Positions 2,828 to 35,119 of a stretch of DNA of 64,000 bases are shown one piece after another. Origin of the DNA: Candidatus Saccharimonadota bacterium (GTDB lineage: Bacteria; Patescibacteriota; Saccharimonadia; Saccharimonadales; Saccharimonadaceae); the NCBI GenBank assembly GCA_017459845.1, contig JAFUCF010000012.1, forward strand, positions 4,120 to 68,119, in the 5' to 3' direction. The notes beneath the pieces are model-generated. The model had not been told where the DNA came from, searched no databases, and saw nothing but the letters and a program-made list of their open reading frames with translations. Each line of letters begins with the position of its first letter. Position 1 is the first letter of the stretch. A program made the translations under genes and the position numbers.

Positions 2828-3109
2828 GATTTTATATAAAGCCGATTTTTCGCCATTTCGCCCCTGTAATTCGCTGTTAAGTACCTTGCGAAGTTCAGGG
2901 GCTAATTTTTTTGACGATTTTTCGATAAAATCGAGCCATGGATACGGCTCTACCTCTATATTTTTGGCTGTTAATACCCTTGCCTCTAGTTTGATATCTT
3001 CTTCAAGTTTGACTGACCTGTACTTGCCTTTTTATGGAAATATGATATAGTATTATGCAGAGGCGTTAGTGCCTTGTGTTTTTACAGATAGTAGAAAGGG
3101 TGGTGAAAA

Positions 3110-4084
3110 ATGACTATTGACATAATCGTGCCGGTTTTTAATGGTGGAAGAAGCATCAAGAGGTGTATAATGAGTGTACTTCGCAACAGCGAACAGTGTC
3201 CAAAAGGAGTGTCAACCAATCTAGTGATTGTAGATGACGGATCAACCGACGAGACATCCAGTATTATAGCACGAATTCAGGCCGAGTATGGCTCGGTTCA
3301 ATACCTAAAGCAAGCAAATTCTGGCGTAGCGTCAGCAAGAAACTATGGGATTGATAAAGCTACTGGGGATTACATTGTTTTTCTAGATGCCGACGATTGG
3401 CTTCCTGATCATAGCATCCAGAGACTACTTAAGTGCGCCTTGGAAAACGATACAGATATTGCTATAGGCAAAAGCCGATATTATCTCGGTAAAATACCTG
3501 TTACGAGTACGTCTGAGACTTGGCATGCAATTTCGCCTGGAGTAATTGACATAGCAAAGGACAATTTCTTAGTTGAAATAACCCCAGGGATACGTGCGAA
3601 GATTTTTAGCCGTAGTCTATTTGAGCATTCTCGTTTTCCAAAAGATAGAATAAAATGGGAGGACTTAGCGCTAGTCCCTGCATTAATTGCTAAGTCTGGA
3701 ATAGTTTCATATGTAGATGATGTAGTCTACAATTATACTGTTCACATGAATACTACAGTAAAAGATTTTCTTTTTCAGTGCAACGTCTTAGACATAATTA
3801 AAAGCCTAGACATCCTCAAAGAAAATCTTCAGCAATTTGATGTCTATGATAGACTGACGGCAGAGTACAACTCTATGCTTACTCTCCATACGCTGTTCAG
3901 GGCAGAAAATGTTGTAACATGGATAAATGCTAATAGACATGAAAAGAAAAAGATTACTCGCAAACTTATCCATGAACTTAATCGACGCTATGCAGACTGG
4001 AAAAATGACGCGGTGCTCACTGATCCTGAAAAACGTTACAAAGATTTATTCTTTAATTTCATGTTGAATAAATGCTATCTGTAA
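3110..4084 (+). CDS. Glycosyltransferase family 2
   Basis: IIVPVFN, VDDGSTD, NSGVASARN, VFLDADD and WEDL motifs. Confidence 0.9.
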   Translation: MTIDIIVPVFNGGRSIKRCIMSVLRNSEQCPKGVSTNLVIVDDGSTDETSSIIARIQAEYGSVQYLKQANSGVASARNYGIDKATGDYIVFLDADDWLPDHSIQRLLKCALENDTDIAIGKSRYYLGKIPVTSTSETWHAISPGVIDIAKDNFLVEITPGIRAKIFSRSLFEHSRFPKDRIKWEDLALVPALIAKSGIVSYVDDVVYNYTVHMNTTVKDFLFQCNVLDIIKSLDILKENLQQFDVYDRLTAEYNSMLTLHTLFRAENVVTWINANRHEKKKITRKLIHELNRRYADWKNDAVLTDPEKRYKDLFFNFMLNKCYL

Positions 4085-8776: not shown

Positions 8777-8983
8777 CTATTTCTTCTTGGAAAGAGTCAA
8801 GAAACCATTCCTTGGGTTTTCATTGACAACGCGATCCTCTGGAAGATCACAAGGAGTGCCCTTGCCGCCATCTTCAGTCTTGGTGAAGAAATAGATTGTC
8901 TGTGGCTTGCCACCGCGGAGAGTGACCTCGGACTTTCTTAGATAATAAGTTGTACCTTTGCTGTTGACATGTTTGTAAGCCAT
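8777..8983 (-). CDS. Small basic conserved hypothetical protein
   Basis: 68 aa with SD AAGGAGG upstream and its own terminator; MAYKHVNSKGTTYYL...LRGGKPQTIYFF pattern. Confidence 0.75.
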   Translation of the reverse strand: MAYKHVNSKGTTYYLRKSEVTLRGGKPQTIYFFTKTEDGGKGTPCDLPEDRVVNENPRNGFLTLSKKK

Positions 8984-9077
8984 GTTCCTCCTTAGTTGAT
9001 TGTATTTCTATCTTATATCTCTTTACAATACCTGTCAAGGTTTTTCTAGCTTGATTGTAAATTCTACCTAGCGTCTC

Positions 9078-9210
9078 GCATAATCAGCTCGTAACTTGGG
9101 TATTTTGGGGCCCTGTCTTCAAAAGCAATCCCATAAATTTCTTAAGGAAATTTATGGGCCCCTCTTTTGAAGCCACCCCAAAATAGCCCTAAGTAGGTCA
9201 CTGATTATGC
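9078..9210. repeat. Imperfect palindromic element, copy A (133 bp)
   Basis: Nested inverted repeats GCATAATCAG/CTGATTATGC, TATTTTGGGG/CCCCAAAATA, CTTCAAAAG/CTTTTGAAG and CCCATAAATTTC/GAAATTTATGGG; motifs shared with 13870-14011. Confidence 0.85.
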
Positions 9211-9888
9211 TTGGCTATGTTTTATCCTCAGCGTTATTCTCAAGGTGAGCCAGACGAAGAAACGGATGATAATAACAATGAGGAGGATAAGAGTAAGGAG
9301 GGAAACAATGCCAGACGGGGTGAAGGTGAGAATAGGGGAGATGAAATCATAGCGGTAGAGGGAGGTGGATGGCAAGCTGACTGTTACGTCAGAATCTATC
9401 GTATCCGTGGCAGGATACTTGCTGAGCTCGTTTTGGTAACAAGCGATATACTCTGAAGTGTTCCAATCCCAGCCGTTTTCATGGGCGAGCGGCTGACAAA
9501 CGGACATGGCCTGCGCGTAAATGTTGCCGTTGGGATTGGCATATACGCCTGCCGCCTCTTGGGCTTGGATTTTCATGGCAGTAGCAGTACGTTCGTAGGA
9601 TTTAGCTAAATAGATTTCGCCAGAGCCAAAGTAGAGGACAAAGTTGCCGTTTTTTTCTTCTATATTAACGACATTATGACTTTCTACAAAAGATTTAAGC
9701 TCGTTTAGGGCGGCTTTAGTTTTTTCGGCATCGCCAGTTTCGTCGGCGGCAACGACTGCATTCTTTAAATCGTTCATTTTGAGATGGTCGTAGCGAAGAA
9801 GGGTAGCAGAAATAAAAGCCAGCGGAATGAAAATTAGAACAAGCTGCCAGGTTTTGATTTTAGGGATTTTCTTAAAAGGTTTCTTCAT
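9205..9888 (-). CDS. Membrane-anchored hypothetical protein (N- and C-terminal TM helices)
   Basis: Likely start MKKPFKK at 9888; the longer ORF-track start overlaps murC and runs through a promoter region. Confidence 0.7.
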   Translation of the reverse strand: MKKPFKKIPKIKTWQLVLIFIPLAFISATLLRYDHLKMNDLKNAVVAADETGDAEKTKAALNELKSFVESHNVVNIEEKNGNFVLYFGSGEIYLAKSYERTATAMKIQAQEAAGVYANPNGNIYAQAMSVCQPLAHENGWDWNTSEYIACYQNELSKYPATDTIDSDVTVSLPSTSLYRYDFISPILTFTPSGIVSLLTLILLIVIIIRFFVWLTLRITLRIKHSQA

Positions 9889-9932
9889 GCTTCTCTCTAG
9901 GCCCACTAAGCCAATTATGTTATAATTATAAC

Positions 9933-11189
9933 ATGAATATTTATATTGCGGGAATTTCTGGAACAGGGATGGGGCCATTAGCTTTGATGGCAAAGGCGGC
10001 GGGATTTACCGTTTTTGGCTCAGACCTTAATGAAGGGGCAGTGGCGGCAGAATTACATAGAGAAAACATACCGGTAAAATTTGGGGCGCAGGATGGCGCC
10101 TTTCTTAGAAAATGCTACGAGGAGGAGGGGGTAGACTGGTTTGTCCATACCTCGGCGATGGGGAAAGATGCACCAGAGCTAAAAATGGCTGAAAGGCTGG
10201 GGGTGAGAATCACAAAGCGCGATGAGTTGATTGCATATCTTGTTAATAAGCTAGGGCTCAAAATGGTGGCCGTGGCAGGGACGCACGGCAAAACAACTAC
10301 CACAGCCCTTATTACTTGGGCATCGCTACAGCTAGGTTTGCCGGTAGCTTATCTCGTCGGCTCTACGCTTCCCTTTGCAGAAGCCGGGGCTTACTCACCA
10401 GATTCAAAATTTTTAGTCTATGAGGCGGACGAGTATGACCGCAATTTTTTGAAGTTTTACCCATGGGCAGCAGTGATTACGACGGTTTCTTATGACCACC
10501 CGGATATTTATCCAACAAAAGAGGATTACAAAGCGGCATTTGATAAATTCATTTCTCAGAGCGATCGTCTGATTTCAATCCCAAGCGAGCCGGATGATGA
10601 GTATCTAGCTGCGGTAAAGCAGCTAAACCTGGCCGGGGAAAAGCGGCGATACGATGCCGAGTTGGCATTAAACGCCGTGATGGCAATGTGCGAGGAAGTG
10701 GGAAAAGAAGTAAGCACTTCAGAAATTGTAGAGATACTAAATCAATTCCCGGGCGTAGGGAGAAGGTTTGAGAGAATCTCACCCGGAGTTTACTCTGATT
10801 ATGGGCATCATCCAGAAGAAATTGAAGCCACGGTACAGATTGCGATAGAAGAAGCAACGCGCCTTGGGCTAAAAGGTGTGGTAGTGGTTTACGAGCCGCA
10901 CCAGAACGTCCGCCAACACGAAGTGATTGATGGGTACCACAAAGCGTTTGAAGGGGCGAAACATATTTTTTGGCTACCAACCTATCTCACCCGCGAAAAC
11001 CCAGAGCTCAAGGTATTACAGCCGGCAGATTTTATCGCACGGCTAGACAATTCAGCCGAGGCTGAGCCGGGGGAGGTTAGCAGAGAACTATACGAAAAGC
11101 TCCGACAATATTTAGAAGACGGTTTCTTATTGCTCTTTATGTCGGCCGGCCCGCTTGACGCTTGGGTGAGAGAGCAGGATTGGAAATAG
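9933..11189 (+). CDS. murC: UDP-N-acetylmuramate-L-alanine ligase
   Basis: GISGTGMG, GTHGKTTT, EADEYD, DHPD, GVGRRFE and DYGHHPEEI motifs. Confidence 0.9.
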   Translation: MNIYIAGISGTGMGPLALMAKAAGFTVFGSDLNEGAVAAELHRENIPVKFGAQDGAFLRKCYEEEGVDWFVHTSAMGKDAPELKMAERLGVRITKRDELIAYLVNKLGLKMVAVAGTHGKTTTTALITWASLQLGLPVAYLVGSTLPFAEAGAYSPDSKFLVYEADEYDRNFLKFYPWAAVITTVSYDHPDIYPTKEDYKAAFDKFISQSDRLISIPSEPDDEYLAAVKQLNLAGEKRRYDAELALNAVMAMCEEVGKEVSTSEIVEILNQFPGVGRRFERISPGVYSDYGHHPEEIEATVQIAIEEATRLGLKGVVVVYEPHQNVRQHEVIDGYHKAFEGAKHIFWLPTYLTRENPELKVLQPADFIARLDNSAEAEPGEVSRELYEKLRQYLEDGFLLLFMSAGPLDAWVREQDWK

Positions 11190-12593
11190 ATAGACGTGGA
11201 GCGCGTTTGGCAACCCGCCGAAGAAAAACAGCGTAAAAGCAAATGCAACTAGTACGCTTATAAGAAGCGCGTCTGGTCTAATCCAATAGATAATAAAACC
11301 AACGGTAAGAGCAGCTAACAGAAAGCCGACAAGGCCTAGCTCTAGTAAAATAGACGCATACTGATTTTGGACGATTTCTTTAGAAAAACCTAGCTCTGGG
11401 TGCTTTTCATATAACTTAATCCCTGCTGAGCCGAGGCCGGTGCCAAAGAGAAGATTAGTAGGAGAATCATTCCAAACATCTAGAGCATCACGCGTGAGCT
11501 CGGAGCGGAAAGCGCTGGATTCCTCAACGTAGCCGTCAAAACTAGATTGCGTAGTTTCTGATTGTACTTCTGGAGCTGAACTAGTAGACACGGCTAATGA
11601 TTCAGTTGGGGAAGTTTGACTTGAAGCATCCGTTAGCTCGGCCGGCCGCAAATCTATCTTACCAAGCGAAAGCTGGTGGATGCTCTTGGAAACGCCCGTC
11701 CAAAAAGTATCGCTCGTAGGGGAAAGCTCTGCAAAAATACCCTGAATACAGAGTACGAAAAGAAAACAGCCTAAGGCAATAGGGATGATTAAGAAAGCCC
11801 TGCGATTAAAAGAGCCTTTATTTGACTTTTTCTTAATATATTTTATAACAGGGAATTGCGCGAGGAAAATTAGCCCTAACCCGATAATAAGAGCATAAAT
11901 AGCGCCACGCGAGAAAGTGAGAAAGATAGTGGAGATTAAAAAGATGGTAAAGATAGTCTGCCAGGCTTTCTTGAAAAGAGGATTTTTAGTAACTATCCCG
12001 TACACCGCTAGTAGGGCCGGGGCGAGCAAGAGGTTACCCGCGAATTGCGGCTCTATAGCAAAGCCATTAGGATGCGGATAGCCAAAAGAGAGGTAAGTGC
12101 AGCCGCGGCAAAGCAAAGTGACCGAGCGGCTGAGACCAAGCAAATCAAGAACACATTGTAGCCAACAGAATAGAGAAAACCCAATGCCGGCCAAGATGAG
12201 AATCTTTTGTAAGGTTTTTAACTTGGCTGGGTGCGTTTTAATAAAGTGATAAATGTTTAACCCAACAAAGACGAGGAGGAGAAGAAGGCCGGAAGTTAGG
12301 AGAGCACGGAGGTGGTTGGCGCTCCAGATAGAAGATAGTAGGGCATATACAGGGAATAATGAAAGTAAGAAAAGCTTTTTACCGTAAAACTTAATAAGCG
12401 ACTTTAGGTTTATAAGGCTAACTATGGCAAAGAGTACCAGCCAGATTTCAGCAAGGGAAAACTCAAAGTTGGTAGTATCAGTAGAGCCAATTGAGATGAC
12501 GGGGTGGTAAGAAAAGAATAGAGCAATTGGGCCAGCCAAAAGGAGCGCCCACTGCAAGGTTTGAAGGGAATTAACGAACCCCGATTTTTTCAT
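11127..12593 (-). CDS. O-antigen ligase / Wzy-like membrane protein
   Basis: About 12 TM segments; PNGFAIEP, TFSRGA and GTGLGS...QNQYASILLELGLVG, typical of the Wzy_C/WaaL fold. Confidence 0.75.
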   Translation of the reverse strand: MKKSGFVNSLQTLQWALLLAGPIALFFSYHPVISIGSTDTTNFEFSLAEIWLVLFAIVSLINLKSLIKFYGKKLFLLSLFPVYALLSSIWSANHLRALLTSGLLLLLVFVGLNIYHFIKTHPAKLKTLQKILILAGIGFSLFCWLQCVLDLLGLSRSVTLLCRGCTYLSFGYPHPNGFAIEPQFAGNLLLAPALLAVYGIVTKNPLFKKAWQTIFTIFLISTIFLTFSRGAIYALIIGLGLIFLAQFPVIKYIKKKSNKGSFNRRAFLIIPIALGCFLFVLCIQGIFAELSPTSDTFWTGVSKSIHQLSLGKIDLRPAELTDASSQTSPTESLAVSTSSAPEVQSETTQSSFDGYVEESSAFRSELTRDALDVWNDSPTNLLFGTGLGSAGIKLYEKHPELGFSKEIVQNQYASILLELGLVGFLLAALTVGFIIYWIRPDALLISVLVAFAFTLFFFGGLPNALHVYLFPILLSHPSVKRAGRHKEQ

Positions 12594-14025
12594 CTATGTA
12601 CTCCTTCATTTTAGCTTTAAAAATTTCTGTATCATAGGGAAGAGCGGTGGCGGAGATTTTGGAAGGGGAAAATACCTTAGGGCTAGTTTTTCTTAAATCA
12701 CAAAAGCGGTTAATACAACTAGCAAGAGAATCGGCCGTCTGATGGTCAAAGAATAAACCGTTTTCGCCATCCTTGATGTAATCTAGGGCGCCGCCTTTTT
12801 TGTAAGCCAAGACTGGGCAGCCGGCTGCGAGAGCTTCTACTGGCGCAATCCCAAAAGGCTCTTGGCTAGGGAAAAGATAGCCTTTGGCGTTTTTAAGATA
12901 GGTTTTTAGCTCGTCTTTATCCATTTTAGAGAGAAAAACAATATTGTCATGGCCTTTAGCCATACTTTGAAGTTTCCTGAGCTCTGGGCCATCGCCGATT
13001 AAGACTAAATTTTGGTGGGTTTTAATACAAGCCGCTATGGCAAGATCCAGGCGCTTCCAGTTAACCATACGAGAAGTAGTAATGAAATAACCATCTGAAC
13101 AAAAATCTTGCTCAAGAATTTGACTATTTGACATTTTTATTGTTTTATTATGGTTTTTATTTATTTGACTTTTCCCTACTTTGTTTTGTGATAAGTTTTC
13201 CACAGGGCTTGAATTTTCCCACATAAATGTTTTAGTATCAACTGGCGGGTAAATTACGGTTGCTTCCCTCTTATAAAAGCGCTTGATTTCCTGTTTGGCG
13301 TAGTTGGAAATAGTGATGTAATAATCTGGGAGTTTGGCAGCCGCGTAATCTTTTTTACGCATAGGTTTGACAAAAAGCTTTAGGCCTAGCCGGGCAAGCG
13401 GGTTAAGAAGGCCAAAGCCGGGATCTTTGAGGTACTGATCATATAAACCCCAATAGTACTGGGTAGGGACGTGACAAAAGCATATATGAGTAGTTTTTCC
13501 ACGGCTTGTGGAAATCTCTGTTCGGTTTTTTAAATTTTGTTCGGTTTTAATCTTATCTTTGTGAGTTTTGACATATTTTGCCTCGGCCCCCGTAACAGAA
13601 ATTACTAAGTCGTAATCCGTGAGGTCTAGTTTTTTGAAATAGCGAGCCCGGATTGGGCCAATAAATTTGCGGAGGCAATTGGGAAAATGCTGAAGGTAGC
13701 CGGTGCGGACATCGGCGTCTTTGAACCAGGTAATTCCCTTTGGATCGTATTTGGATGTATAGATAGGGGCAGATGGGAACATCTGGTGAAGCTCTAATAA
13801 AACCTTTTCCGCGCCACCAAAGTTTATAAGCCAGTCGCAGGCTAAGGCGACCTTTAAATCACTAGGCGCGCAAGCTGGCTCGTCCCGCAGGTGTTTTGTG
13901 GTCCTGTCCCGCACATCCCCAATAATCCTCGCCCGAGCTTCGCTCGTGCTCGGCTTTTGGGGGCCCCGTGCGGACCACCCCAAAACAGCCTTGCGAGGGT
14001 TACCAGCTTGCTTGTCGTCACTCAT
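12571..14025 (-). CDS. Glycosyltransferase family 4 carrying three in-frame insertions
   Basis: KVALACDWL..GGAEKV, YPPVD and EPFGIAPVEALAAGCPV; ATG at 14025 overlaps the upstream stop as ATGA. Confidence 0.9.
   Translation of the reverse strand: MSDDKQAGNPRKAVLGWSARGPQKPSTSEARARIIGDVRDRTTKHLRDEPACAPSDLKVALACDWLINFGGAEKVLLELHQMFPSAPIYTSKYDPKGITWFKDADVRTGYLQHFPNCLRKFIGPIRARYFKKLDLTDYDLVISVTGAEAKYVKTHKDKIKTEQNLKNRTEISTSRGKTTHICFCHVPTQYYWGLYDQYLKDPGFGLLNPLARLGLKLFVKPMRKKDYAAAKLPDYYITISNYAKQEIKRFYKREATVIYPPVDTKTFMWENSSPVENLSQNKVGKSQINKNHNKTIKMSNSQILEQDFCSDGYFITTSRMVNWKRLDLAIAACIKTHQNLVLIGDGPELRKLQSMAKGHDNIVFLSKMDKDELKTYLKNAKGYLFPSQEPFGIAPVEALAAGCPVLAYKKGGALDYIKDGENGLFFDHQTADSLASCINRFCDLRKTSPKVFSPSKISATALPYDTEIFKAKMKEYIDEKIGVR
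13870..14011. repeat. Imperfect palindromic element, copy B (142 bp), inside the GT4 reading frame
   Basis: Nested inverted repeats GCAAGCTGG/CCAGCTTGC, TGTTTTG/CAAAACA, TGGTCC/GGACCA, CCGCAC/GTGCGG and CCGAGC/GCTCGG. Confidence 0.85.
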
Positions 14026-15446
14026 TTTGCGCCTCGGCCGGTTATAACCACGGCGATGGTGCGGAGAAGGATTTGGAGGTCTAGCCAGAATGACCAATTC
14101 TGGATGTAGTATAGGTCTAGGGCGCGGCGCTCCTCAAAGGATATGTCGCGGCGGCCGGAGACTTGAGCAAGTCCGGTAAGACCGGATTTGACCGAGAGAA
14201 GCAAGGAGCGGTCGCCATAATCGCGTAGCTCGCCAGGTACTAAGGCGCGCGGGCCAACCAGCGAAATATCGCCCTTTAAGACGTTGATAAGCTGAGGGAG
14301 TTCGTCTAGAGAAGTACGGCGAATAAAATGGCCAATCTTGGTGACGCGCGGATCATCCTTGATGTAATCGCCACCGCTGCGATACTTTTCGATTAACTCT
14401 GGGCGGCCCATTTTAGCAAAGGCCTCCTCAGGGGAAAGCCCAGAATACTCTGGCTTTATAGAGCGGAACTTATAAATCTTCACCTTTTTATTGTAACGGC
14501 TAAGACGATATTCTGCGTAAAAGGCCGAGTGCTTAATGTCTGATAACTTAACAATGAGCCAGATAACACCCATAGGAATAGCGGCGATGATGACTGCGAT
14601 GAGACCAAGTACAATATCCATAATGCGTTTTACGATGCGGGCAGAGCCAACAAGCGGAGTGACCTTGACTAGCATAGCCGGCGTGCCGCCGATAAGCTCT
14701 AGCTCCCCAATATGGGAAGACAACGAAGATTCTGTTGGGACAAAATAATAACGCATGTGATGCTTGATAGACTCCGCATAGACATATTCTGTCCTTTCCT
14801 CATCTGTCTGGAAGATAACATCGGCATCAGTCTCCTCCAATGCGGCGGCAAGGGAGCTAAATTGGTACTTGCGGAGCTCCTCTGGGACAAAGCTATTACC
14901 GGCGACAATCCCCTTCAGCCGGAAGCCATCTTCTGGGAAATCTACAATATGTTCTATTAAGCGCTCGGTATTTTTATTGTTGCCAATAATAATAGTGCCG
15001 ATGCCGCTGGTAAGGCGGGTATTGAGAGCACGGCGCAGGAAACGGGCGATGAACCGAACAAAGAGCAGCATTACGAAACAGAAAATGAGCGCCCAAAGCG
15101 CAACCGCGCGACTTGGGAAAAGACTGGCCTTAGTAAAGAACTGGTAGGAAACAAGTATCATCATGCCTAAAACTGAGGCGGCAAAGGCACGGGCAATTTC
15201 TGGCAAACGAGAGCGGCCGTTGTATACCTTACGACTGTATAACCCAACGAGAGCTAAGATAATCCACCAAATCGGGATGAGCACGAGGACGGACAGAAGA
15301 AATGTCCAGGGATCCTTTTCAAAGTAAAATGGCCGGGAATCAAGATTAGTACGTACGAGATAAGCAAAGAAAAAGGAAGCCACAATCGCCAACGCATCGC
15401 CAAACATTAACCATAGGACGTAAACTAAACCTGGTTCTTTTTTCAT
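14022..15446 (-). CDS. Undecaprenyl-phosphate glycosylphosphotransferase (WbaP/WcaJ-type priming transferase)
   Basis: Four N-terminal TMs; KRIMDI, YKFRSI, DDPRVTKIGHFIRRTSLDELPQLINVLKGDISLVGPR, GLTGLAQV and DLYYIQNWS. Confidence 0.93.
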   Translation of the reverse strand: MKKEPGLVYVLWLMFGDALAIVASFFFAYLVRTNLDSRPFYFEKDPWTFLLSVLVLIPIWWIILALVGLYSRKVYNGRSRLPEIARAFAASVLGMMILVSYQFFTKASLFPSRAVALWALIFCFVMLLFVRFIARFLRRALNTRLTSGIGTIIIGNNKNTERLIEHIVDFPEDGFRLKGIVAGNSFVPEELRKYQFSSLAAALEETDADVIFQTDEERTEYVYAESIKHHMRYYFVPTESSLSSHIGELELIGGTPAMLVKVTPLVGSARIVKRIMDIVLGLIAVIIAAIPMGVIWLIVKLSDIKHSAFYAEYRLSRYNKKVKIYKFRSIKPEYSGLSPEEAFAKMGRPELIEKYRSGGDYIKDDPRVTKIGHFIRRTSLDELPQLINVLKGDISLVGPRALVPGELRDYGDRSLLLSVKSGLTGLAQVSGRRDISFEERRALDLYYIQNWSFWLDLQILLRTIAVVITGRGAK

Positions 15447-32656: not shown

Positions 32657-33724
32657 TTATTTATACAACCCTAGATGCTTGTTTCCGTCGTAAATCATGG
32701 TTGGGATGCCTTTAGGCTTGATTTGATTTTCTACCACCTCGCGAATTTTCTTGATGTGGTCTGAGACCTCGGAGGATTTGGCTTTCTCCGTAATGGTTTT
32801 AATCTGGGCGTCGCTCAAACCCCATTCTTTAAACCAAGATTTAATAGTTTTTTCAGCGGTTTCTTCATCGTACTCATTATCAAAGAGATACTGATAGTTC
32901 TGGCCGCTCGTATTTTGGCCAGTATATATTTGATTAATTAATTTGAGGCTGAGATTCTTATACGCCGTGCCGTCTTGGCTTGCCGACGTTAATAAGAGCG
33001 CATAATAGTAATTAGTAATGAGCGGTGAATTCTTAAACTTTGGAGTGCCACCATCCGCCTCAATCACATAAAGCATAATATAGACTTTGTGGTTTTTGAG
33101 GAATTCTTCATCTTTCATCTGATTGCGGAAAGATGAAAGACAAACTGTACAGCCTGGATCCATAATGTCTAGCGCGGACGGGATGTTATCTTCACCATTA
33201 TTTTGGCCAGATAGTTCATTGATGGTCTCAATAGGCGTAACAAGATAATCAGAGGCATTCCAATTCTTTAAACGATCTGGAATGGCAGCAAAAATCTCGC
33301 CCCATTCTGAAAACCAGTTTAGATTCTCCTCGTCTATAGAGCAAGATTCTGCGCCGAGGGCACAAGAGGCGGGATGAGAAACATTACAAGTGCCAAGCGC
33401 CCAAAGGGCGAGGCCGGCCTTTACGCCTTCTACGAGCGACCAAACCGTAATAACCACGATGAGCACACTGGCGATTTCTATAACTCTGCTAAGGGGTTTA
33501 ACTGCCTTTGGCTTTTTTAGGGCAACTTTTTTAAGTAATACCGCCTTTACGTCATCCTGAAAACTAGTGTCGCATTTTCTAAAGGTAATGTGGCGAGTAA
33601 AACAATGCCAAGATTTTTTTAAGACCTTTAAATACTTTTTGCCTAAATCGCGTTTAAAAATGCTAATGAACGCGACAAAGATACCTATAACAATTAAAAT
33701 AATAAATGCTGCAATGCAAACCAT
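32657..33724 (-). CDS. Membrane protein with a C-terminal DsbA/thioredoxin-like domain
   Basis: CTVC (CxxC) in DPGCTVC and a cis-Pro-like GIPT; N-terminal TMs with extra Cys. Confidence 0.6.
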   Translation of the reverse strand: MVCIAAFIILIVIGIFVAFISIFKRDLGKKYLKVLKKSWHCFTRHITFRKCDTSFQDDVKAVLLKKVALKKPKAVKPLSRVIEIASVLIVVITVWSLVEGVKAGLALWALGTCNVSHPASCALGAESCSIDEENLNWFSEWGEIFAAIPDRLKNWNASDYLVTPIETINELSGQNNGEDNIPSALDIMDPGCTVCLSSFRNQMKDEEFLKNHKVYIMLYVIEADGGTPKFKNSPLITNYYYALLLTSASQDGTAYKNLSLKLINQIYTGQNTSGQNYQYLFDNEYDEETAEKTIKSWFKEWGLSDAQIKTITEKAKSSEVSDHIKKIREVVENQIKPKGIPTMIYDGNKHLGLYK

Positions 33725-33759: not shown

Positions 33760-33930
33760 TTACCACTATCTAGCCTTTGCTAGACGCTACTCGCCGCCCG
33801 CTACCGCCGAAAAAGCACAACAAATAGCCTATCTTCAGAGCGCTTATATTTGGCGCTCTTCAGATAGGTATTAGTTGTACTTTTTGCGGGGCGAGTAACG
33901 CATTGTCTAGCAAAGGCTAGGTGGTGGTAA
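33760..33930. other. 171-bp rod-like imperfect hairpin (candidate ncRNA or MITE-like element)
   Basis: 26-bp terminal inverted repeat with 2 mismatches, plus inner stems TACTCGCC/GGCGAGTA, AAAAAGCACAAC/GTTGTACTTTTT, CCTATCT/AGATAGG and AGAGCGC/GCGCTCT. Confidence 0.8.
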
Positions 33931-33943
33931 CAGACTGGCGTAG

Positions 33944-35119
33944 TTACAAGTTAGTTAGGGCTTGTTTTACTTTTTCAATGTCGGATGGGCGGGTGTGGTA
34001 GCCAAGGGAGAAGCGAAGGAGCGGCGGATAATGTTTGACGTGATCTAGATAGTAGTGGACGCAGAAGTAACCGGTGCGAACCATAATCCCCTGCTCAGCC
34101 AAGGCGGAGCCTAAAAAGTGAGAGTCAAAGCCTAGCTCGCTCCGGTCTACATAAAGCGAAATAGTAGGGTTAGGCAGTTCGTTAACGACGTGCAGGCTAG
34201 ACTTACTCTTGAGGAACTCATAAAGCTCAGTATAGTTTTGCTCTAAATTACGATGGTCGTCTTTGCCTAAACCTTCTAACCAATCTATTGCCGCGCCGAG
34301 CGCAATTATCTCACCCCACGCCTGAAGGCCGGACTCAAACTTAGTGTAGGCGTGTTCTGGATCTTCAGATAGGAGGCTATAGGCCTCTTTATCTACATCG
34401 CTAACCATACCGCCACCAACAAAACCCGTTTCTATAAATGGCAAGAAATCCCGCCGCATAATGATGCCACCAAGAGAAGGGGCATACATTTTGTGGGCGG
34501 AAAAACAAATAGCATCGGCTGAGGTCTTCTCTAGGATATCCTTAGAGTGAGCCATAGCCTGAGCGGCGTCAATGATAAGGAAGCCACCGTTCTTATGAAT
34601 ATGCTTTTCTAGAGCTGTGATATTTTCTAGCCGACGGCCGTCAATATTGGAGGCGGCATTCACAACGACTAAGGCATGACTAAAATCGGTGGCATCAAGC
34701 GAGATGCTGCCATCATTATTTCTTGTGACAACCTCCCGCGAGATACCCGTACGCTTAGAGAAAGCCATGGTAGAGAGGAATGGAGAGTTATGCTCTATGT
34801 CGCTCGTAACAATTTTCTTAATGCCGGCCTTTTCTGGATTAAACTGGGACAAAACTAGGTTTAAACCGTAAGTAGTGTTAAGAGTAAATGACACGAAATA
34901 TTCTTTTTTCTTAAGCTTTAGATATCTTAAGACCTTTTCGCGGGCGGCGTTGACTTTTTGGTCGGTGGTAACACCCCAAGGGTACTTTACCCGCTCGCCG
35001 CAAGAATTAAATTGCTTATAATATTCTGTCAAAGCTCTAATTACCGGCTCTGGGCGCAAGCTCTGGCAGGCAGAATCTAGATAAATATCATTTTCTTTGA
35101 GATAGTTAAAATCGTTCAT
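33944..35119 (-). CDS. Class V PLP-dependent aminotransferase, cysteine desulfurase (SufS-like)
   Basis: YLDSAC, EHNS, DAAQ, FSAHKM (PLP Lys) and RTGYFC (persulfide Cys). Confidence 0.85.
   Translation of the reverse strand: MNDFNYLKENDIYLDSACQSLRPEPVIRALTEYYKQFNSCGERVKYPWGVTTDQKVNAAREKVLRYLKLKKKEYFVSFTLNTTYGLNLVLSQFNPEKAGIKKIVTSDIEHNSPFLSTMAFSKRTGISREVVTRNNDGSISLDATDFSHALVVVNAASNIDGRRLENITALEKHIHKNGGFLIIDAAQAMAHSKDILEKTSADAICFSAHKMYAPSLGGIIMRRDFLPFIETGFVGGGMVSDVDKEAYSLLSEDPEHAYTKFESGLQAWGEIIALGAAIDWLEGLGKDDHRNLEQNYTELYEFLKSKSSLHVVNELPNPTISLYVDRSELGFDSHFLGSALAEQGIMVRTGYFCVHYYLDHVKHYPPLLRFSLGYHTRPSDIEKVKQALTNL

Follow-up and report, generated by a model that had tools for sequence, protein, structure and literature searches.

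A dispersed palindromic repeat of gut Saccharibacteria is probably read in frame at the start of a GT4 glycosyltransferase gene

The 64-kb stretch of Candidatus Saccharimonadota bacterium DNA analysed here (contig JAFUCF010000012.1, positions 4,120 to 68,119; hereafter the window) encodes on its minus strand a glycosyltransferase of family GT4, the gene of which contains an imperfect palindrome, copy B, close behind its start codon (Table 1). The protein has Pfam matches to Glycos_transf_1 (PF00534, 5e-27), Glyco_trans_1_4 (PF13692, 6e-22), and Glyco_transf_4 (PF13439, above its cut-off). Gene callers predict the same 484-residue product on six contigs, and its open reading frame (ORF) is intact, with all family-invariant residues present. 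The ORF upstream, read on the same strand, is called WbaP-like because it contains Bac_transf and CoA_binding_3 domains. The G+C content of copy B is 63%, as opposed to approximately 42% in the window. The palindrome folds as a single long irregular hairpin with a minimum free energy of -80.5 kcal/mol for the segment 13850-14030 (z = -4.8), and none of 200 shuffled sequences folded as well.

The start of the GT4 gene overlaps the end of the WbaP-like gene. Positions 14022-14025 read TCAT on the plus strand, which gives ATGA on the minus strand, shared between the GT4 start codon (14025-14023) and the WbaP-like TGA stop codon (14024-14022). From this ATG the GT4 frame (MSDDKQAGNPRKAVLGWSARGPQKPSTSEARARIIGDVRDRTTKHLRDEPACAPSDLKVALACDW) continues without a stop through the entire palindrome, which encodes the peptide QAGNPRKAVLGWSARGPQKPSTSEARARIIGDVRDRTTKHLRDEPAC, and the beginning of the product is MSDDKQ-AGNPRKAVLGWSARGPQKPSTSEARARIIGDVRDRTTKHLRDEPAC-APSDL-KVALACDW. 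The only ATG, GTG, or TTG codons in frame ahead of KVALACDW are the ATG at 14025, a TTG at 13983, and a GTG at 13914, of which the latter two are inside the element. The valine of KVAL is encoded by GTC, and the codon in the place of the ancestral methionine is TTA, replaced in a sister strain by CTA, which is likewise no start codon. An initial annotation of this DNA had described the overlap of the two genes as ATGA, the stop-free GT4 frame across a 142-bp palindrome, and the lack of an in-frame ATG, GTG, or TTG between the element and the KVALACDW motif; all three descriptions are correct, and the limits of 13870-14011 that it gave for the palindrome are exact.

Table 1. Features of the GT4 locus, element copies, GT4 junctions in related loci, and terminal stems of the element
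Feature	Position	Strand	Description
GT4 glycosyltransferase coding sequence	12571..14025	-	484 aa, including a 56-residue element-derived N-terminal extension
WbaP-like initiating sugar-phosphate transferase ORF	14022..15446	-	474 aa; Bac_transf and CoA_binding_3
Copy B, 142-nt imperfect palindrome	13870..14011	-	terminal stems GCAAGCTGG / CCAGCTTGC; placed by sequence, fold, covariance-model match, and alignment
GT4 start codon ATG and short leader MSDDK	14012..14025	-	leader precedes the element
Shine-Dalgarno sequence GAGG	14032..14035	-	6 nt before ATG 14025; within the 3' end of the WbaP-like gene
Linker APSDL	13855..13869	-	from the element to the ancestral second codon; codon 57 is TTA where empty-site relatives have an ATG/GTG start
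Copy A, 133 nt, 44% G+C	9078..9210	-	same orientation as copy B; stems GCATAATCAG / CTGATTATGC
Copy C	L128 2986-3131		in frame in der (Der site 2) of the window's own genome; contig matches only the ends of B
GT4 junction, L003			empty, +0 nt; ATGAAGGTA; ...GCTAAATGA joined to AGGTAGCC
GT4 junction, L008			empty, +0 nt; GTGAAGGTA
GT4 junction, window			filled, +168 nt
GT4 junction, L001			filled, +162 nt
GT4 junction, L002			filled, +228 nt
GT4 junction, L004/L005			shorter, partly similar sequence, +93 nt
GT4 junction, L006/L007			shorter, partly similar sequence, +42 nt
Terminal stem, B, C, MnmA, PheT			GCAAGCTGG / CCAGCTTGC
Terminal stem, TatD			GCAAACTGG / CCAGTTTGC
Terminal stem, ArgRS			GCGAAGTGG / CCACTTCGC
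Terminal stem, L001			GCGAGCTGG / CCAGCTCGC
Terminal stem, Der site 1			CAAGCCGG / CCGGCTTG
Terminal stem, BipA			GCAAATTGG / CCAATTTGC
Terminal stem, copy A			GCATAATCAG / CTGATTATGC

Orthologous loci carry the GT4 gene both with and without the element. A protein search was performed with the 484-residue GT4 sequence, and N-termini were examined in the first 60 of 120 listed relatives. Most of these 60 start with MKVALVCDW or have short extensions, with a query coverage of 88%. Proteins P0002 and P0009 reach 99% coverage and share a homologous extension, AGDPRRA.LGW...RDEPAR. Synteny is kept through wbaP, GT4, a wzy-like gene, and from a reversed mur-ligase gene onwards, with the WbaP-GT4 order seen in L002, L004, L006, and L008. 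At the empty sites, ...AAATGA is followed directly by AGGTAGCC, and the product begins with MKVAL (ATGAAGGT). In the alignment of GT4 orthologues, the element is present or absent at this exact insertion point. All versions of the junction (Table 1) have lengths that are multiples of three, are stop-free, and keep the coupled ATGA or GTGA start and its Shine-Dalgarno sequence; GAGG or GGGG followed by ATGA or GTGA occurs in both empty-site and filled-site relatives. The downstream methionine codon is gone from every filled or shortened version, where TTA, TTA, CTA, and CCG are found. The frame also persists where the insert has changed. Compared to L001, L002 has lost 1 nt at each of two places in the apex and has gained nested hairpins in the 3' arm; these changes shift and then restore the frame, with a net gain of 66 nt. 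In the sister strain, represented in two sequencing runs, the leader is longer by two separate insertions of 3 nt and reads MTTNDSAQAGN. Stop-free junctions that are multiples of three and coupled to the upstream start are the pattern expected if ribosomes read from that start through the insert.

Two of the related junctions have features of their own. At positions 3007-3220 of L002, two extra perfect hairpins (GTCCAAAGCCAGTGGCTTTGGAC and CTCGTGCGCGAATGCGCACGAG) are nested in the 3' arm of the GT4 copy, and hairpins seem to accrete within the element while the host frame persists. The 93-nt insertion of L004 (10001-10110, also in L005; MSRVCDDPRSRGNDKRSLSLRGDAGASRLEPP) is faintly similar to the element, with DDPRSR in place of GDPRRA. 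Its end, AGATTAGAGCCACC, matches the reverse complement of the codons that open the conserved domain, GGTGGCTCTAATCT, which results in a hairpin over the old start region.

The element is not restricted to the GT4 gene. A search with the peptides from all open frames of copies A and B and of the L001 copy identified a peptide of 48-49 residues (QAGDPRRAILGWPENGVPPEEAFSEGKSSLGVNFRDRTPKYPRDEPAC), with a variant ending in ...PKHPCGTSQLA owing to a 2-nt indel, inside Saccharibacteria proteins of gut-metagenome origin that are unremarkable in other respects. The hosts are MnmA (two clusters), Der/EngA (two sites), a GatA-type amidase, BipA/TypA, ArgRS, and PheT; nhmmer run on the retrieved DNA added a copy within tatD. 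The host ORFs continue on both sides of the element copies, which, unlike copy A, are open in the frame of the host. The consensus has two open frames, but matches are only ever in the one of the sense orientation, and the codon phase of the first base is identical in all seven copies examined as DNA. In total, the family comprises at least 12 loci at 11 distinct sites. A covariance-model search confirmed the family and its structure, with scores of 88-185 bits in the related loci and of 110-114 bits for the window copies. Sites outside GT4 are polymorphic as well: BipA alleles with 97% identity either carry or lack the element, and each of the two Der sites is occupied in one of two genomes and vacant in the other.

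One of the in-frame copies, copy C, belongs to the genome of the window. It was found among the assembled contigs of four gut-metagenome runs, in which the window is present at 94-100% of sampled words. The flanks of copy C on its contig translate as ILILTKTDLL and TDKILDELE, and alignment to B. subtilis EngA (2hjg) shows that, in the second GTPase domain of Der, the insertion immediately follows the G4 motif TKTD. The depths of the copy-C contig and the window contig in the four samples are 10.4 and 10.3, 58.5 and 60.9, 7.9 and 8.2, and 3.2-3.9 and 4.6, respectively. Because the depth of the copy-C contig follows that of the window contig, the organism has at least three copies, A, B, and C. 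No further contigs matching the ends of B at 80% or more were present in the four runs.

Some of the retrieved sequences contain unusual arrangements. In L096, a mini-element of 40-50 nt (VVRAGDPRGTSQLAV, positions 2437-2486) is in frame in pheT, and a full copy is in the same gene at 3014-3160. The mini-element consists of the basal stem and loops (GCGAGCTGG TGACCCGCGCGGGACGAG CCAGCTTGC) with the interior absent, and matches the covariance model with E = 4e-6. It is possible that it is the product of an internal deletion or an excision footprint. The predicted 555-residue protein P0124 has an N-terminus like that of UvrD-type helicases, joined exactly at an element copy to a C-terminal part of 90 residues nearly identical to ArgRS P0127. 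P0124 may have arisen by mis-assembly at the repeat, as a chimera, or by real recombination between copies. In Corynebacterium urinipleomorphum (L014, L020, L021, and L061), a loose pattern matched five places, none of which is element-like by nhmmer, which suggests an unrelated repeated sequence in that species.

Copy A is a diverged member of the same family. It was detected with the covariance model at 110.2 bits (E = 2.1e-27), close to the 113.6 bits (E = 2.7e-28) of copy B, and the model, built from eight copies and run with filters off, gave no significant matches in the 64 kb beyond these two. The copies have in common the motifs GTRACC, TTTTGGGGTGG, GACAGGRCC, and ACGAGC; at most stem positions they differ, with compensating changes. 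Copy A has stops in all six frames, and its first stem provides the TAA stop codon (9205-9207) of the ORF 9205..9993. The homology of copy B to copy A proposed in the initial annotation is therefore upheld, but the description of copy A as intergenic is not fully accurate, since the element supplies the stop of a gene. Copy A is located upstream of a conserved TTGACA...TATAAGAT promoter of a 68-aa gene (8777..8983), and its orthologous site is empty in L004.

The surroundings of copy A vary among relatives. Between copy A and the 68-aa gene (8984-9077) are a sigma-70-type promoter, with TTGACA and TATAAGAT separated by 17 nt, and a strong AGGAGG. The gene, directly downstream of copy A, encodes MAYKHVNSKGTTYYLRKSEVTLRGGKPQTIYFFTK..., and no Pfam match is on record in its relatives; promoter, Shine-Dalgarno sequence, and gene are near-identical in L004 and L006. 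At the copy-A site, the end of a gene of 226/262 aa, L006 carries a different palindrome of approximately 175 nt (about 14713-14887). The L006 and window palindromes have only the outermost stem, (A)ATAATCAG...CTGATTAT(T), in common, and in both it gives the TAA of the upstream gene. L004 is empty at this site except for a small hairpin, AGGAAG-TAAGTAAT-CTTCCT. The outer stem may be a host terminator hairpin that was hit by elements, or one interior may have been swapped for another.

Eight copies of the element were aligned using MAFFT, and a consensus structure was calculated using RNAalifold. The consensus is one hairpin with four helices separated by the conserved internal loops UGACC/ACGAG and UGG/ACAGGA, and 95.8% of its pair cells are paired. 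Both sides have changed in 17 of the 53 pairs, compared to 4.4 +/- 1.5 in column shuffles (0 of 500 reached the observed value) and 2-5 in controls with slid partners, and compensatory changes occur in all four helices. The terminal stem of 9-10 base pairs varies among the copies and is always complementary (AGCT, AACT/AGTT, AAGT/ACTT, AGCC/GGCT, and AATT; Table 1). Approximately 38 G.U cells were counted in the alignment and pair counts, as opposed to 4 A.C cells, and the sense strand is more stable than its complement by 4.8-11 kcal/mol in nine of nine copies, which share ancestry and are not nine independent trials. Variable columns in the seven consensus-type copies are distributed 13, 7, and 9 over codon positions 1, 2, and 3. 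Since there is no excess at the third position, the peptide shows no sign of selection. The window and the sister strain differ by 19 substitutions in 408 nt of the GT4 core (4.7%), 14 synonymous and 5 non-synonymous, and by none in 151 nt of the element, where about 7 would be expected (Poisson P ~9e-4). Judged from these comparisons, the constraint appears to be on the nucleic-acid hairpin, in its sense strand, rather than on the peptide. It may act after insertion, at the level of the host or through conversion between the arms, or before insertion, in master copies; as the copies share ancestry, they are compatible with either.

The 484-residue GT4 was modelled using AlphaFold2 with a 50-sequence alignment (predicted template modelling score 0.79). 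The predicted local distance difference test score is 32-45 for residues 1-53, exceeds 90 from approximately residue 60, and is at least 90 for 269 residues. Strand beta-1 and the GT-B fold, with its Rossmann-type alternation of strands and helices, begin at residue 59. In the model, the 56-residue N-terminal tail is probably disordered and outside the GT-B fold. The tail is hydrophilic and basic, and the element accounts for about 48 of its residues, rich in glycine, proline, and arginine. The N-terminus of GT4 proteins tolerates additions, because variable extensions of 5-30 residues are frequent in more distant members of the family.

Taken together, copy B is very likely one copy of a dispersed repeat family of approximately 142-149 nt in gut, ruminant-type Saccharibacteria that resembles Rickettsia palindromic elements (RPEs) and is read in frame in GT4. 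We infer that the peptide is tolerated as a passenger and does not act as a functional module. The element would enter transcribed DNA in the sense orientation, and within genes only stop-free versions with a length divisible by three in the open frame would persist. In GT4, the insertion would have occurred between the start codon and the former second codon, the context of which then drifted to TTA in place of the ATG of the relatives. Because of this replacement, and because no start follows the element, initiation at ATG 14025 and read-through of the hairpin would be obligatory. Ribosomes that terminate at the wbaP TGA would provide most of the initiation at GT4, and GT4 probably depends on this coupling because a hairpin of -76 kcal/mol begins at +15. 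The ATGA coupling is ancestral and was not made by the element, because it is present at empty sites.

No direct repeat indicative of a target-site duplication was found in the filled and empty comparisons at Der site 2, BipA, and GT4, although divergence of the alleles limits this comparison. The AGTGA that flanks copy B was considered as a target duplication and rejected, as it is not reproduced in L001, L002, or the Der and BipA sites. No transposase or autonomous insertion sequence (IS) was noticed in the gene tables of the retrieved loci, a negative obtained with no systematic genome search. It is conceivable, as a speculative proposal, that the element is more than tolerated selfish DNA, namely a strand-specific structured module whose sense-strand hairpin, as RNA or single-stranded DNA, lets it spread and persist with no terminal repeats, no duplicated target, and no transposase of classical type, and that its structure is selected after insertion, for example through mRNA fate or operon coupling.

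Several observations weigh against the in-frame RPE-like reading of copy B. Four of the six frames of copy B are open by composition alone, so the open frame is unremarkable by itself and its significance comes from the comparative data. The TTG at 13983 and the GTG at 13914 are possible starts in principle; even so, the element would be partly coding, because a start at the GTG would still translate the 3' arm. The valine of KVAL is GTG in L001, L002, and L004, as opposed to GTC in the window, and those orthologues could start past the element. The support for production of the peptide as a GT4 tail is indirect and comes from conservation of the frame. Filled, shortened, and empty junctions are mixed on the neighbour-joining tree of GT4, and this patchiness requires repeated gain, loss, recombination, or allele exchange. 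No precise boundary of the element could be drawn, and when filled alleles are compared to empty ones, 6-20 nt to either side of the core differ as well. The copy number in the window genome is low, with B and C recognised by similarity to the ends of B and the diverged copy A. In larger collections, a scan of 185,579 GTDB representative genomes for TTTTGGGGTGG-N(48-78)-GACAGGNCC returned 86 stretches, all of them chance matches according to nhmmer. The sole match from Saccharibacteria among them, L009, is an ordinary coding sequence without the palindrome. The pattern GGTGACCCTCGCNGGGCTNTT gave 27 stretches in JGI metagenomes and 0 in IMG/VR, none of them real. With the patterns used, only gut assemblies from ENA and Logan reveal the family. 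An exhaustive HMMER search with the 57-residue window peptide against 1.84 billion cluster representatives matched only P0130, an unrelated tandem-repeat protein; representatives at 50% identity hide inserts.

An explanation compatible with translation is that the hairpin is selected as a functional RNA module of use to the cell or to the element, for mRNA stabilisation or processing, ribosome pausing, wbaP-GT4 coupling, or as an RNA or single-stranded DNA intermediate of transposition. The changes in all four helices, the greater stability of the sense strand, and the large excess of G.U over A.C cells are in its favour, as are the lack of any substitution in copy B between strains with 4.7% divergence in the flanking coding sequence and the sense orientation of copy A and all genic copies, even though the antisense strand also has one open frame. 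However, the covariation could predate insertion or stem from conversion between the palindrome arms, and the shared ancestry of the copies reduces the weight of the strand comparison. The same sites are empty in close relatives with no visible consequence, the element shrinks or decays in L004, L006, and the PheT mini-element, and no Rfam family matches. Selection of the RNA, which departs from the main reading only by adding a function beyond selfish persistence, is a minority possibility.

Less probable is that copy B is a non-coding intercistronic leader, such as an attenuator, an RNase III site, or a stabiliser, with GT4 translation starting at one of the internal codons TTG 13983 and GTG 13914 or, close to TTA 13857, at a codon of non-canonical type, so that the palindrome would be left mostly or wholly untranslated. 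The very stable hairpin 15 nt past ATG 14025 should hinder initiation by free 30S subunits, in-frame TTG and GTG codons are available, and copy A is terminator-like in its place after a gene and before a promoter. Nevertheless, both internal codons are within stems and have no well-spaced Shine-Dalgarno sequence, and the conserved Shine-Dalgarno sequence with ATGA or GTGA is the start of the empty-site relatives. Five insertion versions are multiples of three and stop-free from the upstream start, including the compensated frameshifts and the 3-nt leader indels, which are upstream of TTG 13983. L001 has no in-frame start between a TTG at codon 14 and codon 57. As initiation at GTG 13914 would translate the 3' arm, the element is coding wherever beta-1 stays intact, and inside Der, MnmA, ArgRS, and other hosts its translation is unavoidable. 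A purely non-coding role is accordingly unlikely.

The hairpin could also be an intervening sequence that adds no peptide, excised from the mRNA like an intron or bypassed by the ribosome. In yeast mitochondria, GC-rich palindromes are bypassed during translation, and a very stable hairpin such as that of copy B brings both flanks together. Such a mechanism would lift the need for stop-free inserts divisible by three, yet all genic copies comply and copy A does not. No ribozyme or intron model in Rfam matches, and no joints were present at the locus in the runs (assembled contigs, library type not recorded). This explanation is highly improbable. That the junction is an assembly chimera at the repeat, or GT4 a pseudogene created by the insertion, is hardly credible: repeats of this family do break or mis-join assemblies, as contigs end at the element in X3 and X4 and P0124 resembles a UvrD-like/ArgRS chimera joined at a copy, but the identical junction was assembled independently in four samples with even depth and is on six contigs, and the intact ORF with family-invariant residues and the 14 synonymous versus 5 non-synonymous changes speak against a dead gene.

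Other repeats and compositional features of the window are separate from the copy A and copy B family. A second, unrelated intergenic palindrome of approximately 170 nt (33760-33930), with 26-nt terminal arms that are 92% complementary, is located between two minus-strand ORFs, 32657..33724 and 33944..35119. The interior of this palindrome, compared by eye, is homologous to that of about 175 nt at the copy-A site of L006, in the same orientation relative to the flanking genes. From the sequences, the two look like a second family of hairpin repeats in these genomes. In the segment 1969-2244, a tRNA gene (1969-2042) precedes a tandem pair of units of about 89 nt (2067-2155 and 2156-2244) that are 97% alike, each repeating the 3' half of the tRNA and 24 nt of downstream sequence. 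Such an arrangement is typically left where a tRNA attachment site undergoes integration and excision repeatedly. Across positions 1-64000, the plus-strand GC skew is positive in nearly all 4-kb bins, although the minus strand carries about two-thirds of the long ORFs, including the genes with copies A and B. This means either a majority of lagging-strand genes here or C-rich coding strands, and a replication-strand account of the orientation bias of the element gains no clear support from it.

Protein-coding palindromic repeats have so far been regarded as a peculiarity almost confined to Rickettsia. The like behaviour of an unrelated family in Saccharibacteria suggests convergence, and both groups are ultra-small, host-dependent bacteria. 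Because nearly all DNA is coding in such genomes, hairpin repeats may survive only if they are read through. For annotation, inserts of about 50 residues in Der, aminoacyl-tRNA synthetases, MnmA, GatA, BipA, and GT4 are repeat-derived and not lineage-specific domains, and the repeats also break or mis-join metagenomic assemblies. The natural filled and empty alleles of essential genes may be used to study how proteins and ribosomes tolerate a hairpin of -80 kcal/mol and a floppy insert. The same alleles make it possible to ask whether the elements tune expression of the surface-glycan operon, which is relevant to the episymbiotic lifestyle. The proposal in the initial annotation that mRNA structure could control the downstream glycan genes is speculative. 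If the reading as a strand-specific module were true, the elements would constitute a new class of mobile, translated RNA structures in the reduced genomes of the candidate phyla radiation.

Compared to known systems, the element shares with repetitive extragenic palindromic (REP) sequences and integron attC sites a strand-specific hairpin of variable sequence in which the pairing and a few unpaired bases are kept. REPs are recognised by HUH enzymes and attC sites by tyrosine recombinases, and attC sites have RYYYAAC/GTTRRRY cores flanking cassettes. An attC core, a kink-turn, and an IS608-type TTAC target were looked for by eye and are absent, and copies of the element are also inside genes. 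REPs are 20-40 nt long and have GTAG/CGTC tags (PMC3733652). A palindrome of the type mobilised by REP-associated tyrosine transposases was rejected as well, as the element has 133-149 nt, begins with GCAAGCTGG, and has no GTAG/CGTC tag. The coding palindromes of Nematomorpha mitochondria are reported to be similarly long inverted repeats translated within essential genes with the hairpin kept at the nucleic-acid level; they are locus-specific perfect inverted repeats of organelle genes and not a dispersed family (PMC6649704).

Transposable elements of the miniature inverted-repeat kind (MITEs) that overlap ORFs include QMITE1/2 of Coxiella (PMC5896051), intragenic enterobacterial repetitive intergenic consensus (ERIC) sequences, and the Correia elements of Neisseria (PMC10969869). 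Like the Saccharibacteria element, they are short non-autonomous inverted-repeat elements that can extend or fuse ORFs, can supply stops (copy A is an instance), and form hairpins as RNA if transcribed together with their surroundings. In a typical MITE, the terminal inverted repeats are conserved, the target is duplicated, and a parent IS can be recognised, whereas here the terminal stems vary in a compensating manner, no duplication was found in two filled and empty comparisons, and no parent element was seen. On these three features, the element does not look like a typical MITE. A 2024 review of MITEs does not mention Saccharibacteria, Patescibacteria, or the candidate phyla radiation (PMC10969869), and no report of such elements in these groups was found in the literature searched. 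The consensus and window versions of the element peptide matched 0 NCBIfam families at E <= 10, in a collection that presumably includes the RPE1-domain model TIGR01045, and 0 Pfam families at E <= 1. Rfam 15 gave nothing at E <= 10 over 9078-9210 and 13870-14011, and only two tRNAs in the window reach the gathering threshold. The claim of the initial annotation that the element is undescribed agrees with these database and literature results.

The closest resemblance is to RPEs (RPE-1 and relatives; Ogata et al. 2000, Science 290:347, and Ogata et al. 2002, Genome Res 12:808, as summarised in PMC10969869). About 150 bp long, these palindromic repeats code for a conserved peptide and often lie in frame in unrelated metabolic genes. 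Both are imperfect palindromes of approximately 150 bp dispersed in small host-dependent genomes, with some copies intergenic and no associated transposase known. Both have in-frame copies in unrelated housekeeping genes, each of which adds a peptide of about 45-50 residues. The insertions fit the fold of the host protein, here as an N-terminal tail in GT4, in the inter-domain linker of Der, and in the loop after G4 of its second GTPase domain. The differences are the phylum (Saccharibacteria/Patescibacteria, from ruminant gut), the absence of any sequence relationship, and the low copy number here, at least three; strict sense orientation and the G.U asymmetry of the sense strand are features of the Saccharibacteria family. 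Because it belongs to a different phylum and has no match in NCBIfam, Pfam, or Rfam, the family is not RPE by homology. An in-frame, RPE-like insertion in Saccharibacteria that is unrelated to known families, as originally put forward, is supported by the filled and empty sites, the other in-frame copies, and the database searches. On the evidence of its sequences, the family is like the RPEs in function and separate from them in descent.

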